Shown here: piece after piece, positions 500-6,954 of the stretch
Numbering within the stretch: position 1 is the stretch's first letter
How the letters are laid out: each line of letters opens with the position of its first letter
From: Dehalococcoidia bacterium
GTDB lineage: Bacteria > Chloroflexota > Dehalococcoidia > Bin125
NCBI GenBank assembly: GCA_963663895.2
Contig: CAXXRD010000003.1
Location: 96,001-160,000, forward strand
DNA length: 64,000 bases
Reading direction: 5' to 3'
Program-made: the position numbers and the translations under genes
The notes under the pieces: generated by a model
Told to the model about the DNA's origin: nothing
Databases searched by the model: none
The model's input: only the letters and a program-made list of their open reading frames with translations

Positions 500-577
500 T
501 CAGTCTGGATCGGGGCGCCGCGCTAGTATGGGCGCCGTTGCTCCGAGCGCAGCGAACGCAGTGAAGGGAAGCGGCAC

Positions 578-1552
578 ATGGCGCCGACGGGCCGGCCGAT
601 TGAGTTTGGGATCCAAACCAACCTGCACCAGACGACGTTCGACGAGGTGCTCTCGACCTGGCAGGTCGTGGAGCGGGAGGGGTTGGACCACGCCTGGACG
701 TACGACCACCTGATGCCACTGTTCTCGAACCCGGAGGGCCCGAACCTGGAGGGCTGGACCACGCTGGCCGCGCTGATGGTGCAAGTGCCGCGCATCCGTG
801 CGGGGGTGCTGGTGCCCTGCAACCCGTTCCGGCCACCGATCGTGACGGCCAAGATGGCGGTCACGATCGACCAGTTGAGCGAGGGGCGCCTCGAGATGGC
901 GCTGGGGGCGGGCTGGTGGGAGCCGGAGTTTCGGCACTACGGGATCGAATGGGCACCGCTGCCGGAGCGGCTGGCGCAGATGGACGAAGCGATCCAGGTC
1001 ATGCAGTCGCTATGGACGCAGGACCGGACGACCTTTGAGGGGACCTACTACACGATCCGGGACGCACCGTTCCAACCGAAACCGGTGCAACAGCCGCACC
1101 TGCCTCTCTGGATCGGCGGCCGGGGGAAGAAGTACACGCTGCGCATGGCGGCGAAATACGCGGACGGCTGGAACGTTTGGACGCTGCCGCGCGAGGACTA
1201 CCTGGAGCGGCTCGCCCTCCTCGACCAGTACTGCGAGCAAGCGGGGCGGGACCCGAAGAGCGTGCGGCGCTCTCTGGCGGCACGGATGCGCATCGACAGG
1301 AGCAGCGAGGCGGCACGGGCGGCGATGCTGGCAGAAGGCACGGCTGGCGGGGAAGAGCTGCCGGAGGGCTTCGAGGAGTTGATCAACCAGGCGCTCGCAG
1401 GGTCACCGGAGGAGATCGCGGAGCAGATCGGAGAGTTTGCGGAGCTGGGCGTCGATCATATCGTCCTGCTGATGGACCCTCCCTACGATCAAGAAGGCCT
1501 GACCCGTTTCGCACGCGAGGTGGTGCCTCTGGTGCGCGCGGCGGGGTTGTGA
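578..1552 (+). CDS. LLM-class (probably F420-dependent) oxidoreductase
   Basis: WTYDHL, TIDQLSEGRLEMALGAGW, PKPVQQPHLPLWIGG, AAKYADGWN motifs of the luciferase-like monooxygenase family. Confidence 0.88.
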   Translation: MAPTGRPIEFGIQTNLHQTTFDEVLSTWQVVEREGLDHAWTYDHLMPLFSNPEGPNLEGWTTLAALMVQVPRIRAGVLVPCNPFRPPIVTAKMAVTIDQLSEGRLEMALGAGWWEPEFRHYGIEWAPLPERLAQMDEAIQVMQSLWTQDRTTFEGTYYTIRDAPFQPKPVQQPHLPLWIGGRGKKYTLRMAAKYADGWNVWTLPREDYLERLALLDQYCEQAGRDPKSVRRSLAARMRIDRSSEAARAAMLAEGTAGGEELPEGFEELINQALAGSPEEIAEQIGEFAELGVDHIVLLMDPPYDQEGLTRFAREVVPLVRAAGL

Positions 1553-1554
1553 TC

Positions 1555-2811
1555 ATGATGGCCGAAGCCAAGCCGGTCGACGGCACGACCCCGCAATACC
1601 TGCGCGACAAGTACGCGATCATCGGCGTGGGGGAGACCCCGTTCATGCGCGGCTCGGGCAAGACCACACGAGCGCTGGGAACCTGGGCGATCCGGAACGC
1701 GATCGCGGACGCCGGAGTTGATCCGGGCGAGATCGACGGAATGCTGTCGTATTCCATCGGAGACTCGACGGCGACTCCCTTCGTCGCCGGCGACCTCGGT
1801 ATCCGGTTGAATTTCTACATGGACTGTTTCGGCGGCGGGAGCAGCACGGAGGCCTTGCTCGGGCTGGCGATCGGCGCCATGGAAGCGGGCATGTGCAAGA
1901 TGGTGTGCATCTACCGGGCGATGAACGGCTACTCCGGAAGGCGGATCGGAGCAACCGGCCGGACGCCGGCGACCATCTCCGGCGACGGCTTGCACATGGC
2001 TCCCTATGGCTTCTTCAGCGCCGGACAGCGTTTCGCTTTCACCTTCATGCGCCACATGTACGACTACGGCACCACGCCGGAGCAGGTCGCCATGGTGAAA
2101 GTCATCCATAGCGAGCACGCCTCGAACAACCCCAAGGCGCTCTATCCCCGCCGCGTGACGGTCGACGACGTGCTCTCGAGCCGCATGATCGTAAAGCCGC
2201 TGCACCTGCTGGACTGCTGTCTGGAGACGGATAACGGCACGGCGATCATCGTGACCAACGCACGGCGCGCCTACGACTACCGGCACACGCCAGCGCGCGT
2301 GCTGGGGGTGGTGGGACGTTGCAACTGGCCGCGGATGGACATGCACTACCAGCACGGCCCGATCTCATCGTGGGCCGCTCGCTACGCCAGCAAGATCCTG
2401 TGGCCGAACGCGGGGCTGGGGCCGGAGGAGATCGACGTGACGGGCGCCTACGACGCCTTCACCTTCACGACGCTGCTGGGACTGGAAGACTTCGGCTTCT
2501 GTGAGAAGGGCGCCGGCGGGGAGTACGTCAGCAGCGGCGTCATGCGCCTGGGCGGCGCGCGCCCCAACAACACGAGCGGCGGGCATCTCTGCGAGGGCTA
2601 CACCCACGGGATGAACTTGGTGATCGAGAACGTGCGCCAATTGCGCGGCGAGATCGACGATTCCTGTCCTGTCGGCGCGAACGGCAATCCCGAGCACAGC
2701 TACGACTATCGCACAGGCGGCTGCCGCCAGGTGAAGGATGTGGCGGTGACGGCCAACATCGGCTGGGCGGGGCCGATCACATGCTCCGCGGCAGTCCTAC
2801 GGAAAGGATAG
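1555..2811 (+). CDS. Thiolase-superfamily protein, SCP-x/Ltp2-like (probable acyl-CoA retro-aldolase)
   Basis: AIIGVGET start, GGGSS where thiolases have a catalytic Cys, YDAFT and NTSGGHLCEGYTHG motifs; start reset to ATG 1555 just after the upstream stop. Confidence 0.82.
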   Translation: MMAEAKPVDGTTPQYLRDKYAIIGVGETPFMRGSGKTTRALGTWAIRNAIADAGVDPGEIDGMLSYSIGDSTATPFVAGDLGIRLNFYMDCFGGGSSTEALLGLAIGAMEAGMCKMVCIYRAMNGYSGRRIGATGRTPATISGDGLHMAPYGFFSAGQRFAFTFMRHMYDYGTTPEQVAMVKVIHSEHASNNPKALYPRRVTVDDVLSSRMIVKPLHLLDCCLETDNGTAIIVTNARRAYDYRHTPARVLGVVGRCNWPRMDMHYQHGPISSWAARYASKILWPNAGLGPEEIDVTGAYDAFTFTTLLGLEDFGFCEKGAGGEYVSSGVMRLGGARPNNTSGGHLCEGYTHGMNLVIENVRQLRGEIDDSCPVGANGNPEHSYDYRTGGCRQVKDVAVTANIGWAGPITCSAAVLRKG

Positions 2812-2813
2812 CC

Positions 2814-3332
2814 GTGACCGTCACCGGGACGTATTTGGGAATGAGCCTGGCGATTCCCGAGAACGATGAGCAGAACCGGGCGTACTTCCACTACTGCGCG
2901 GCGCATGATTTCCGGCTGCAGCGATGTGGCGGCTGTCATCTGCTGCGCTATCCACCCACGACGGGATGCCCTTGGTGCATGGGCACGGAGTCGGAATGGC
3001 ACCCCGTGGAAGGGAAAGGAGCGGTGCACTCGTACGGCGAGGTGCATCATGCGATCCAGCCGGCCTGGAAGGCCCACACGCCCTACCTGTTCCTCTTGGT
3101 CGACTTGGATACCCAGAAGGGCGCCCCCACGGAGCACGACGCGCTGCGCGTGCTGGCGAACCTCGTGACCGCCGATGGACAGCCGGCGCCGCCCGATCTC
3201 GTGAGGCAGGTGGGGATTGGAACGCGGGTGCGCATGGTGTTCGTAGACGCAGGCGAAGGGATCGCCATCCCTCAATGGACGATCGACCAGGATGCGGAAC
3301 AGCCCCCGCCCTGGCGCTACCCGCAGGAGTGA
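2814..3332 (+). CDS. DUF35 Zn-ribbon/OB-fold protein (thiolase partner)
   Basis: LQRCGGC...YPPTTGCPWC, EGKGAVHSY, IGTRVRMVF; directly follows the thiolase-like gene. Confidence 0.88.
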   Translation: MTVTGTYLGMSLAIPENDEQNRAYFHYCAAHDFRLQRCGGCHLLRYPPTTGCPWCMGTESEWHPVEGKGAVHSYGEVHHAIQPAWKAHTPYLFLLVDLDTQKGAPTEHDALRVLANLVTADGQPAPPDLVRQVGIGTRVRMVFVDAGEGIAIPQWTIDQDAEQPPPWRYPQE

Positions 3333-3736
3333 CGACGCGGCACCGTGGAGCCGGGCTAGGGCTCGGACTTGTCCTGTTGGTCGCGATGGCAGGCTGCTTC
3401 GGCGGCGAGCGGGGCGACATCACGCTGGGGTACGCGGTCGAGACCCGGCTCGCGCAGCAGCCCGTCACCGAACGAGTGGAGGGCTCAGTCACAGCGGGAC
3501 GTGAGTTTTTCGTGCGCTTGCAGGTCCCGGAGCCACGCGCCGAAGCGTTTGTGACGTTGCGGGCCGCGCGGCGGGTGGGAGGCTCATTCCAGCCGTTGAT
3601 CGAGTTCGACCAGCCCGTTTCGCCTCCCTGGCGAGTGGTAGTGATTCCGCTGACCTTGGAGCGGCGAGGGGAATGGTTGGTCTCAGTCTTCGCCAACTCA
3701 CGCAAGCTCACGGATGCCGAGGTGGACGTGGAGTGA
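3329..3736 (+). CDS. Hypothetical lipoprotein
   Basis: GTG overlaps upstream TGA; hydrophobic signal ending in lipobox-like MAGC; fills the gap before fhs. Confidence 0.6.
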   Translation: MTTRHRGAGLGLGLVLLVAMAGCFGGERGDITLGYAVETRLAQQPVTERVEGSVTAGREFFVRLQVPEPRAEAFVTLRAARRVGGSFQPLIEFDQPVSPPWRVVVIPLTLERRGEWLVSVFANSRKLTDAEVDVE

Positions 3737-3767
3737 GTGGTATCGTCGGCGCCGTAGGGAGACGCGT

Positions 3768-5393
3768 ATGCGAGCAATTACCGAGATCGGCGCAGAGCTG
3801 GGGCTGGCGCCCGATGATCTGGAGCAGTATGGGCCGTATAAGGCAAAGCTGAGCGCCGCCACTCTGGAGCGCTTGCGCTCCAAAGAACAGGGCCAGCTGG
3901 TCCTTGTCACTGGGATGACGCCCACAACCGCGGGCGAAGGCAAGACGACGACATCGATCGGGTTGACGCAGGGCTTACGGCGGCGCGGGGTTGGGGCGAC
4001 GGTGTGCCTGCGGGAGCCGTCGATCGGACCGGTGATGGGGATCAAGGGCGGGGGGACCGGCGGAGGTGGCGCGCAACTGCTGCCCGCAGATGAGATCAAC
4101 CTGCACTTCACGGGCGATCTGCACGCCGTGACGGCAGCCAACAATCTGCTGGCTGCGGCTGTAGACGCCTCGATCTTCCACGGCAACCCGCTGGGTCTCG
4201 ATGTACGCCGGGTGACGTGGCGGCGTTGCCTGGATATCAACGATCGCGCGCTGCGGCACGTCGTAGTGGGGCTCGGAAATGCGCCGGACGGCGTGCCGCG
4301 GCAAGAGGGATTCGCCATCACTCCCGCCTCGGAAGTGATGGCCATCCTATCGATTGCATCGGATTTCGAGGACCTGCATCGGCGGCTCGGCGCGGTGATC
4401 GTGGGTTACACCCGCGATTTCACGCCGGTGCGGTGCACGGAGATCGGGGTGGACGCCGCCATGGCGGTGCTGCTGCGTCAGGCGGTGCGGCCCAATCTGG
4501 TGCAAACCAGCGAAGGAGCACCTGCACTCGTGCACGGCGGGCCATTCGCGAACATCGCGCTGGGCTGTAACAGCATCGTGGCGACTCGGGCTGCGCTCGC
4601 GCTCTCCGAAGTCGTCGTGACGGAAGCAGGGTTCGGGAGCGATCTCGGGGCCGAGAAGTTCCTCAATGTCGTATCGCGCTTCGGCGAATTGCAGCCACAG
4701 GTCGCGGTGATCGTCGCAACCGCGCGGGCAATCAAGCGCCACGGCGGCCGGGATGCAGCGGCGTTGGAGGTCGAAGACTTGGAGGCGCTGGCGGTCGGAT
4801 TGGCGAACCTCGACGCACATATCGACAACATGGAGCAGCATGGGTTGACGCCGGTCGTCGCTGTGAATCGCTTCCCGAGCGACACCGACGCGGAGATCAT
4901 CACGGTAGTCGAGCACTGCGCCAAGCGGGGCGTGCGGGCCACGCCTCTGTCGCCGTACGACGGCGGCGAAGCGTGCCTGGATCTGGCGGACGCGGTGCAG
5001 GATGCTTTGGCAGCGGGTCGAGGGAGGCTGCAACCACTCTACGTAATGGAGCGCCCGATCAGGGAAAAGATCGATGCGGTAGCGCGAGCAGTGTATGGAG
5101 CGGATGGCGCGGTCTATCAGGGAACGGCGGAGCGGACGATCGAACGGGCAGAGCGCATGGGCATGGCGGCACTACCGATCTGCGTCGCCAAGACCCAGTA
5201 CTCGCTTTCGGACGATCCCGCCTTGATCGGCAGGCCAAAGGGACACGCCCTCCACGTGCGGGAGGTGCGGCCGGCGGCAGGAGCCGAGTTCCTCGTGATC
5301 ATTGCCGGAGACATCATGACGATGCCGGGACTGCCGAAGGTCCCTGCAGCGACGAAGTTCTCGACGGCAGAGGGGGCCGGACTTCCGGTATAG
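3768..5393 (+). CDS. fhs: Formate--tetrahydrofolate ligase
   Basis: TPTTAGEGKTTT, INLHFTGDLHA, HGGPFANIA, EAGFGSDLGAEKF, IMTMPGLPK. Confidence 0.96.
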   Translation: MRAITEIGAELGLAPDDLEQYGPYKAKLSAATLERLRSKEQGQLVLVTGMTPTTAGEGKTTTSIGLTQGLRRRGVGATVCLREPSIGPVMGIKGGGTGGGGAQLLPADEINLHFTGDLHAVTAANNLLAAAVDASIFHGNPLGLDVRRVTWRRCLDINDRALRHVVVGLGNAPDGVPRQEGFAITPASEVMAILSIASDFEDLHRRLGAVIVGYTRDFTPVRCTEIGVDAAMAVLLRQAVRPNLVQTSEGAPALVHGGPFANIALGCNSIVATRAALALSEVVVTEAGFGSDLGAEKFLNVVSRFGELQPQVAVIVATARAIKRHGGRDAAALEVEDLEALAVGLANLDAHIDNMEQHGLTPVVAVNRFPSDTDAEIITVVEHCAKRGVRATPLSPYDGGEACLDLADAVQDALAAGRGRLQPLYVMERPIREKIDAVARAVYGADGAVYQGTAERTIERAERMGMAALPICVAKTQYSLSDDPALIGRPKGHALHVREVRPAAGAEFLVIIAGDIMTMPGLPKVPAATKFSTAEGAGLPV

Positions 5394-5410
5394 GTCCCGA
5401 AAGCAACCCT

Positions 5411-6259
5411 CTAGCTCGTTGTCCCTGCCTCCGTTTCGATCGGGCGGTCGAGGGCGTTGCCGTACTCATGCCAGGAGCCGTCGTAAACCTGGATCTCGTT
5501 GTAGCCGAGGAGCCGAAGGACGAACAGTCCGTGCGCCGCACGGATGCCGCCCTGTCAGTAGGTCGTGACGCGTTTCTCCGGCGTCACGCCTAAGCCATCG
5601 AGCTCGGTACGGATCTCCGCCGGCGGGCGAAGCGTGCGCACAGGCTCGTTGAGGAGCTTCAACCACTCAAGGTGCACCGCGCCGGGGATGCGACCGCCGC
5701 GCTTCGTTCCGCGCTTGTTGGCGCCGGTCCATTCACCGTCGGAGCGAACGTCCCAGAGGATCACGTTGGGGTCCTCGGCCGCGCCGGCGACATCGGCGAT
5801 GCCGCAGGTCCAGTGGTTGCTCTGCGCGCCCGGCCTGTAACTCTTGCGCTTGGGACGGTAGTTCTCACGCGAGAGCGGTCGACCGTCCGCCACCCACTGA
5901 TCCAGGCCGCCGTCGAGCAGCATGGCGTTGGTATGACCGTAGCGATCAAGGGTCCACCAGAAGCGGGCAGCGAAGACGCCTCCGGAACCGTCGTAGGCAA
6001 CGATGGTGTCGTCATTGCCGATGCCCATCTTGCCGAGGTGCTCAGCAAACTTATCGCCGTCGATGCCGAAGAGATCGGTATCGTTGCCGTCGCCTTTCCA
6101 GTAGCGGGAGCGAGCGGCAACGGCACCGGGAATGTGGAGACGCTGGTAGGCCGGCAGCAGGTCGCAATCAACGACAACGACGTTGTCGTCAGCAACATGT
6201 TCAGCGACCCAATCGCTCGTGGTCAGAAGCTCGGGGTGGGCCCAGCCCTGGTCAGTCAT
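5411..6259 (-). CDS. Two-domain rhodanese/sulfurtransferase with selenocysteine (TGA 5557-5555) at the active site, 282 aa
   Basis: HIPGAV, LLDGG, DVRS..EW, GRIPGAVH; frame continues through TGA as VTTY-U-QGGIRAAH...LLGYNEIQVYDGSWHEY to TAG at 5413-5411. Confidence 0.88.
5525..5554 (-). promoter_or_regulatory. Putative bacterial SECIS element
   Basis: Directly 3' of UGA: CAG-GGCGGCA-UCCGUGC-GGC-GCACGGA-CUG; perfect 7-bp stem with a G-containing loop 17 nt after the UGA. Confidence 0.7.
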
Positions 6260-6312
6260 GGCGGCAACTCCCTACGCAAGGCTCAGTGACTCCTGGCACA
6301 CCGTAACTATAG

Positions 6313-6340
6313 AGGCAGGCAGGCAGGCAGGCGGGCGGGC
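6313..6340. repeat. Tetranucleotide repeat (AGGC)5(GGGC)2
   Basis: Read directly; lies just upstream of a minus-strand TATAGT -10-like box (6311-6306). Confidence 0.8.
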
Positions 6341-6408
6341 GCTGCGCAAGGTGTGTTGCTGCCTCGGACACGATCCCGTCTAGCTGCTACAGAGTCAGGA
6401 GAGCGGGT

Positions 6409-6954
6409 CTAGAGATCGGGGATCCAGGAGAGTGCATCGTCTGAGTGGCCATTGGAGGGCGGGCAGAGATGGGGCTCATCCTTGCCGGTTACGAGAGGGG
6501 TGTCACAGAGCGGGCAAAGGGGTCGGCCGGCAGCGACGGTATGCTCCGCTTGGACAGCGAAGAGGCGCGCCTGCTCCCGCGAGAAAGCTGCGCGCAGCGT
6601 GGGTTGCTGCGCGTCCGTATCGCCGAGGGCTACGGCGTAGAGGGCGAAGGCACCGTTACTCTCGTCATACCCAAGCGCGAGGCGAGCGATCTGGAAGTCA
6701 ATGTCCGGAGCTAAGGGGAAAACGGCAAGCGGGAGCGGATCCGGCCGGCCCCTTTCCCCCGGCCATCGATTCTGGGCGAGCACGCGGCGTACGGCGGTAG
6801 CCAGCGAGTCGACCTGCTCTTTCTCAAGCCAGAGCGAAGCGGACATCTCGTCGTGAGCGATCAAGCGGAGGCGAAACCGGCGCTGGCCGGGCTCGCCGAT
6901 CGCTTCGGCCTCAAGGGAGTTGAGCGGGCCGAGGTCGCGCTGGGCTTCTGCCAT
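6409..6954 (-). CDS. DUF3090-family protein
   Basis: AIGEPGQRRFRL, LWLEKEQV, VAAGRPLCPLC, HLCPPSNGH. Confidence 0.85.
   Translation of the reverse strand: MAEAQRDLGPLNSLEAEAIGEPGQRRFRLRLIAHDEMSASLWLEKEQVDSLATAVRRVLAQNRWPGERGRPDPLPLAVFPLAPDIDFQIARLALGYDESNGAFALYAVALGDTDAQQPTLRAAFSREQARLFAVQAEHTVAAGRPLCPLCDTPLVTGKDEPHLCPPSNGHSDDALSWIPDL

Follow-up and report, generated by a model that had tools for sequence, protein, structure and literature searches.

Does the in-frame TGA that ends a called rhodanese frame in a Dehalococcoidia bacterium terminate a shortened protein, or is it read as selenocysteine (Sec) in the active site of a complete enzyme? The frame lies in the 64,000-nucleotide stretch of contig CAXXRD010000003.1 that was analysed here as a whole (the window). 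We found that it is very probably a real bacterial selenoprotein gene, predicted from its sequence and that of its relatives to encode a 282-residue tandem-rhodanese sulfurtransferase with SelB- and SECIS-dependent Sec insertion at UGA codon 235. The features of the locus, in window coordinates, are as follows.

5411..6259, minus strand: predicted selenoprotein gene for a two-domain rhodanese-type sulfurtransferase; 282 codons plus TAG (5413..5411) when TGA is translated as U
5555..5557, minus strand: UGA codon 235, predicted to be read as selenocysteine; catalytic Cys column, with TGA/TGC/TGT alternation in relatives
5888..6217, minus strand: N-terminal non-catalytic rhodanese domain, residues ~15-124 (best PF00581 stretch)
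5438..5797, minus strand: C-terminal catalytic rhodanese domain, residues ~155-274, limits approximate (alignment to 1UAR and 3HWI)
5528..5544, minus strand: putative SECIS apical hairpin of 7 bp, UCCGUGC (5544..5538), GGC loop (5537..5535), GCACGGA (5534..5528)
6409-6954, minus strand: DUF3090 gene (PF11290, E 1e-26) with a CxxC...C motif, 150 nt upstream of the rhodanese gene
3714-5393, plus strand: formate-tetrahydrofolate ligase gene (PF01268, E 2e-223), convergent with the rhodanese gene

A tandem rhodanese with TGA at its catalytic residue

The coding strand of the rhodanese gene is the minus strand, which the original prediction had not stated. The called frame (6259..5555) gives 234 residues ending in ...EKRVTTY and is closed by the TGA at 5557..5555, the sole in-frame stop before the TAG. 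Translation with TGA read as U bore out the claim that another 47 residues can be read after VTTY-TGA; these follow residue U235 and begin QGGIRAAHGLFVLRLLGYNEIQVYDGSWHEY. The Pfam family PF00581 matched the protein in two stretches (116.7 bits against a cut-off of 22.2, E 7.4e-34), which identifies it as a tandem rhodanese. The Thermus rhodanese 1UAR aligned over residues 5-274 with an E-value of 4e-42. U235 falls in the column of the catalytic Cys in ...VVYCRIAERS... of 1UAR and ...IAYCRIGERS... of 3HWI, where the original prediction had placed it, and the active-site loop U-Q-G-G-I-R-A sits in the C-terminal rhodanese domain. Judged by alignment to these solved rhodaneses, the predicted fold and the catalytic column are fixed. 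There was no second copy of the rhodanese in its own genome, in which one match was found at E < 1e-40.

One alternative is that a nonsense mutation has cut off the catalytic loop, leaving a pseudogene or a genuinely truncated protein of 234 residues, and gene callers do give a 234-residue product here and truncated products in public records. Such a protein would be missing its catalytic loop and would end before the fold is complete, yet the 47-codon tail is open and is conserved as protein. The tail beyond U235 is conserved across 10 genes with TGA at this column (TGA forms), in which the invariant residues include Q236, G238, R240, A241, A242, H243, Y259, D260, and S262. These proteins share 38-61% identity with the one encoded in the window.

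The pattern of truncation in public databases also speaks against a local nonsense mutation. We examined the best 120 of 1487 database homologs and found that 54 were shorter than 250 residues. Of these, 53 stop at the residue just before the active-site column and the remaining one a residue earlier. The 53 clusters cut at the catalytic column share 49-98% identity with the window's protein. The other 66 of the best 120 were full-length and 63 of them matched the Cys-motif pattern; the remaining three were P0083, with the Cys after Met, and P0061 and P0086, with out-of-frame tails. The closest public orthologs have been deposited as "rhodanese-like" proteins of 234-240 residues without the catalytic loop, and truncated public examples include MCY3887636.1, HJN92446.1, and PZC42108.1. 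The expectation that annotation pipelines would shorten this gene was borne out, also in 53 of the best 120 homologs. With the same-column stop recurring in these 53 clusters and in the 17 loci (18 genes) described below, we regard true truncation as very improbable.

We then asked whether the TGA could be a sequencing or assembly error for TGC or TGT. The stretch was present in 20 runs from 13 studies, and the legible organism labels were sponge, coral, marine, or plain metagenome. Logan contigs from four runs, each of a different study, showed no other letter at 5555-5557 and no insertions or deletions over 5300-6303; the comparison left out 6304-6400 as repeat. These contigs are not copies of the window, because they differ from it at seven other positions. 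The independent assemblies thus kept the TGA at contig level, which supports the original prediction on the letters at this codon. Since orthologs bear the same TGA as well, an error at this codon has next to no probability.

Summed over contigs, depth was some two orders of magnitude higher in the bin 5522-5558. For X1, X3, and X4 among the four runs, it climbed from ~7 to 560-3700 across about 5501-5568, and contigs tended to break there. Many other contigs, short and long, matched roughly 5501-5568 only. The most likely cause is a near-identical stretch of TGA and SECIS in many other genes of these communities. No RNA run was listed among those containing window 5300-6400, and two metatranscriptome runs from the same kind of sample and a related study contained almost none of its sequence words, a result neutral as to expression.

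TGA and cysteine codons among relatives

The original prediction had suggested that orthologs might alternate between TGA and Cys codons at this position. We searched a sample of 401 genomes from the phylum, found a homolog at E < 1e-40 in 185 of them, and examined the best 30 loci. The catalytic column was TGA in 12 of these loci, including the window's, and TGC or TGT in 18; the single stops in the 18 Cys-form loci were their true terminators. A scan of species-representative genomes found TGA at 5 of 80 loci, representing six genes, and TGC or TGT at the rest. The value of 5/80 is not a frequency, because one of the two search patterns spelled Cys and so biased the search toward Cys forms. 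The five added loci came from four named Dehalococcoidia metagenome-assembled genomes (MAGs) and one Chloroflexota MAG. Two TGA-form rhodaneses stand in tandem in a Dehalococcoidia MAG (L051), at 1250-1312 and 2191-2253, each with a hairpin of 6/7 pairs. Three regular-expression matches (L062, L088, and L099) lie in other frames; these are false Sec forms and were excluded from the hairpin counts.

The alternation was thus found, with TGA set against TGC or TGT at exactly the catalytic column. Across all 17 TGA-form loci and their 18 genes, the stop at this column was always TGA and never TAA or TAG, which is a further point against truncation by chance mutation.

A maximum-likelihood tree, built with quick settings, contained 99 rows. 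We found that 17 of the 18 TGA-form genes fell within one well-supported set of 23 rows, together with six Cys forms, while the remaining TGA form (L050) stood apart among Cys forms. The program counted four changes between Sec and Cys. One of the rows is the false Sec row L088_Secb, so the tree implies at least three changes for real genes.

The selA gene was present in all 12 genomes bearing a TGA form in the phylum sample and was missing from several Cys-form genomes (G228, G300, and G159). This co-occurrence is consistent with Sec decoding but weak, because selA is already found in 308 of the 401 phylum genomes. Unpublished genomes entered the homolog tally (G227, G173, G145, and G344) and the selA tally (G227, G038, G145, G173, and G272). 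One locus from G227 (L044) is among the 18 Cys-form loci and was also used for the tree and for the codon table of Cys forms. None of the claims on TGA forms depends on the unpublished genomes.

Sec machinery and the putative SECIS hairpin

The genome that holds the window is 2.37 Mb in five contigs, with 66.5% G+C and 91% completeness. A search of this genome confirmed that the organism has the means to decode Sec, as had been proposed: selA (497.9 bits against a cut-off of 267.9), full-length selB (327.5 bits, plus the C-terminal part, in a single 634-aa frame), selD (359.4 bits), and tRNA-Sec (71 bits with Rfam; anticodon TCA, i.e. UCA, by ARAGORN) were all found above their curated cut-offs. 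The selD gene (L010, contig C2:564495-565427) lies beyond the window and is a selenoprotein gene in its own right. Its one in-frame TGA encodes the U of CGGUASK and precedes a 6-bp hairpin whose AGAU loop is 17 nt from the UGA, a distance shared with the rhodanese gene.

A genome-wide reassignment of TGA was considered and ruled out. Among 1692 open frames of at least 350 codons in this genome, 721 end in TGA, which is therefore a normal stop.

To characterize the hairpin, we analyzed the sequence just downstream of the TGA. The 7-bp stem with a G-containing loop had been described before, at 17 nt, and was recovered here as UCCGUGC/GGC/GCACGGA. It starts 10 nt 3' of the UGA, with 17 nt from UGA to loop, and falls within the codons for I-R-A-A-H-G. 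Bacterial SECIS elements, by the criteria of bSECISearch, reportedly have 16-37 nt between the UGA and the apical loop and a G early in the loop. The 10-nt spacer, the 7-bp stem, the GGC loop, and the distance of 17 nt agree with these criteria. The folding energy of the 66-nt stretch was -29.6 kcal/mol, against -20.7 +/- 2.7 in 200 dinucleotide shuffles (z -3.25), and none of the 200 shuffles folded as stably. No Rfam family matched window 5380-5700 at E up to 10, so the element falls under none of the curated Rfam families. The 13-nt core of the hairpin occurs four times in the genome, and a TGA precedes only the copy in the rhodanese gene.

The hairpin was kept in TGA forms only. At least 6/7 pairs were retained in 17 of the 18 TGA-form genes. 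Among 84 Cys-form matches the maximum was 5/7 pairs, reached by one alone, and none of the 11 Cys forms sharing the QxG[IV]RAAH peptide reached six pairs. The codon usage of the core followed the same division. The codons CGT GCG GCG CAC were found in all 16 TGA forms with the RAAH peptide, while CGT, GCG, GCG, and CAC were used by 3, 4, 7, and 10, respectively, of 15 Cys forms that share this peptide. Synonymous variation persists among TGA forms in the Gln and Gly codons that precede the core, so the invariance of the core codons does not merely reflect recent divergence.

We also compared the pairing with shifted alternatives. On the given structure 93.7% of cells were paired, against 15-71% when the partner strand was slid by 1-3 columns, and the RNAalifold consensus was the 6-bp core. 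One pair covaried, a compensatory change from C-G to G-C in 2 of the 18 sequences, which alters the protein from Ile...Gly (UCC/GGA) to Val...Ala (UGC/GCA). The contrast between Sec and Cys forms is the stronger argument, because the support for the hairpin within these 18 related sequences is mostly conservation with little covariation. These comparisons show that the hairpin is under constraint at the RNA level in TGA forms only.

The exception among the TGA forms was found in the Chloroflexota MAG SP22 (L053, 2191-2270). Its gene lacks the usual hairpin, with 3/7 pairs and the peptide IRAANS, and has an alternative 8-bp hairpin with a GUC loop 8 nt further downstream, so that one SECIS may have replaced another here.

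These results bear on the possibility that a standard amino acid is inserted at the UGA instead of Sec, either Cys or Trp through near-cognate or suppressor decoding, or Cys carried on tRNA-Sec when selenium is scarce. Relatives do work with Cys at the same site, which lends this explanation some plausibility. It is nevertheless hard to reconcile with a complete Sec machinery in the genome, the presence of selA in every genome of the phylum sample that bears a TGA form, a hairpin constrained at the RNA level and placed at SECIS distance, and the use of TGA as a normal stop genome-wide. We consider such readthrough about as improbable as true truncation.

Decoding of UGA235 as Sec is the preferred reading, and the insertion mechanism is well supported, with actual selenium incorporation expected from it. 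SelB with GTP and Sec-tRNA(Sec) would bind the G+C-rich hairpin as the ribosome meets UGA235. Sec would be inserted at position 235, and 47 more codons would then be translated up to the TAG, completing the catalytic domain. The product would be a tandem rhodanese of the thiosulfate-sulfurtransferase type whose catalytic residue is Sec and not Cys.

Relation to known rhodaneses and biological meaning

Rhodaneses containing Sec have been predicted in bacteria before, as the original prediction had noted. The Sargasso Sea selenoproteome of 2005 lists a rhodanese-related sulfurtransferase of COG2897 type with three sequences (PMC1088965), and the GOS selenoproteome of 2008 lists eight sequences under cd01449 and one under COG2897 (PMC2398784). 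Rhodanese-related sulfurtransferases of the Sec COG2897 type are among the families listed in a 2022 review (PMC9312934), and a 2026 review describes a "form 4" with the motif UxxG (PMC13188914). Representatives of the published family are MQG53192.1 and MCY3690685.1. In the available portions of these sources, the family shares with the window's protein SseA/TST-type rhodanese domains, a marine microbial source, and a catalytic Sec, and the window's U-Q-G-G fits the UxxG motif of form 4 (PMC13188914). The novelty implied by the original prediction was therefore overstated, since the two-domain COG2897 form is already present in the accessible parts of all four sources. We assign the gene to this already predicted family; the assignment is suggested by domain type and motif, with a below-cut-off match to NF008557 as an indirect pointer. 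It is a new example of a Sec-rhodanese and not a new kind of system.

The Sec COG2897 family is known by prediction only, and no experiment on a Sec-rhodanese is reported in the available portions of these catalogues and reviews (PMC1088965, PMC2398784, PMC9312934, and PMC13188914). The same portions of the published catalogues are silent on Chloroflexota and on sponge and coral hosts, and likewise on the abundance of the TGA-form clade and its near-invariant TGA and SECIS stretch in these metagenomes. A literature search found no paper joining selenocysteine, sulfurtransferase, Chloroflexi, and sponge. A paper on SAR202 genomics treats rhodanese without any word starting with "seleno" (PMC5864207).

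The closest solved structures are rhodaneses of the Cys type. The Thermus 1UAR, the mycobacterial 3HWI, 3AAX, and 3HZU, and the Azotobacter RhdA 1E0C share the fold and domain order of the window's protein and align with almost all of it, with E-values of 4e-42 to 2e-35. The loop after the catalytic residue ends in Arg-Ala/Ser in the window's protein and the solved Cys types alike. The differences are that the window's protein has Sec followed by QGGIRA, whereas the Cys types have Cys followed by RIAERS or RIGERS, and that the window's mRNA, unlike that of Cys-type rhodaneses, carries the putative SECIS within the loop codons. The single-domain Sec forms of COG0607 and the family NF041203 (rhodanese_LYCAU, CxU) likewise have Sec in or close to the active site of a rhodanese domain. 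These are single-domain proteins with other motifs, in contrast to the two-domain protein of the window, which is not a member of NF041203 because it scored 19.2 bits against a cut-off of 115.

A second candidate for the protein's identity was 3-mercaptopyruvate sulfurtransferase (MST), represented by NF008557 and E. coli SseA (1URH), which also has two rhodanese domains and aligned with residues 11-277. Equivalence to this enzyme was ruled out, with 107.3 bits to NF008557 against a cut-off of 250. The loop of MST is CG[ST]GVT and those of thiosulfate sulfurtransferases are C-R/Q-x-x-x-R. The window's loop, U-Q-G-G-I-R-A, resembles the thiosulfate sulfurtransferase loops and not the MST loop.

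We analyzed the gene neighborhood for conserved partners. The stop codons of the formate-tetrahydrofolate ligase and rhodanese genes are 17 nt apart, and a DUF4870 gene is a further neighbor in the window. A short run of GGCA/GGCG repeats (ggcaggcaggcaggcaggcgggcgggcg) was observed at 6290-6335, in the gap that separates DUF3090 from the start of the rhodanese gene. A 55%-identical DUF3090 directly precedes a 54%-identical TGA-form rhodanese in a single further database cluster, in which one gene call fused DUF3090 and rhodanese into a 431-aa product (P0168). By tblastn of 1.5-kb flanks, the three window neighbors were absent from the other 29 phylum loci, and DUF3090 was likewise missing from the flanks of the other 109 loci. 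The 36 flanking frames of 10 TGA-form loci (omitting L025, a near-duplicate of L024) were unrelated housekeeping genes by Pfam, such as aconitase, DnaJ/DnaK, peptidases, and an MFS transporter. The rhodanese gene stands alone, with no conserved operon within the 1.5-kb flanks and no hint of a substrate.

The chemistry of the Sec form can be proposed by analogy. The selenolate may take a sulfane sulfur from thiosulfate or a persulfide, form a Se-S intermediate, and pass the sulfur to an acceptor; we hold the odds of this scheme to be about even. A more specific proposal, which we consider speculative and unlikely, is that the enzyme is more than a quicker thiosulfate sulfurtransferase and acts as a dedicated chalcogen relay in Chloroflexota associated with sponges and corals. 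It would then bind sulfur or selenium in a Se-S or Se-Se adduct and deliver it to one particular partner; the SelD of the same genome, which contains Sec, could for instance receive selenium in this way. If this were true, the pattern of TGA and SECIS would mark a selenium-dependent step in the sulfur metabolism of the symbionts.

The locus provides a clean example of a putative SECIS embedded in active-site codons, where it would constrain the protein sequence. The main importance of the finding lies in the annotation of rhodanese selenoprotein genes that gene callers shorten. Because the public records stop before the catalytic loop, metabolic reconstructions of these Chloroflexota assign an inactive enzyme to a gene that probably encodes a selenoenzyme.
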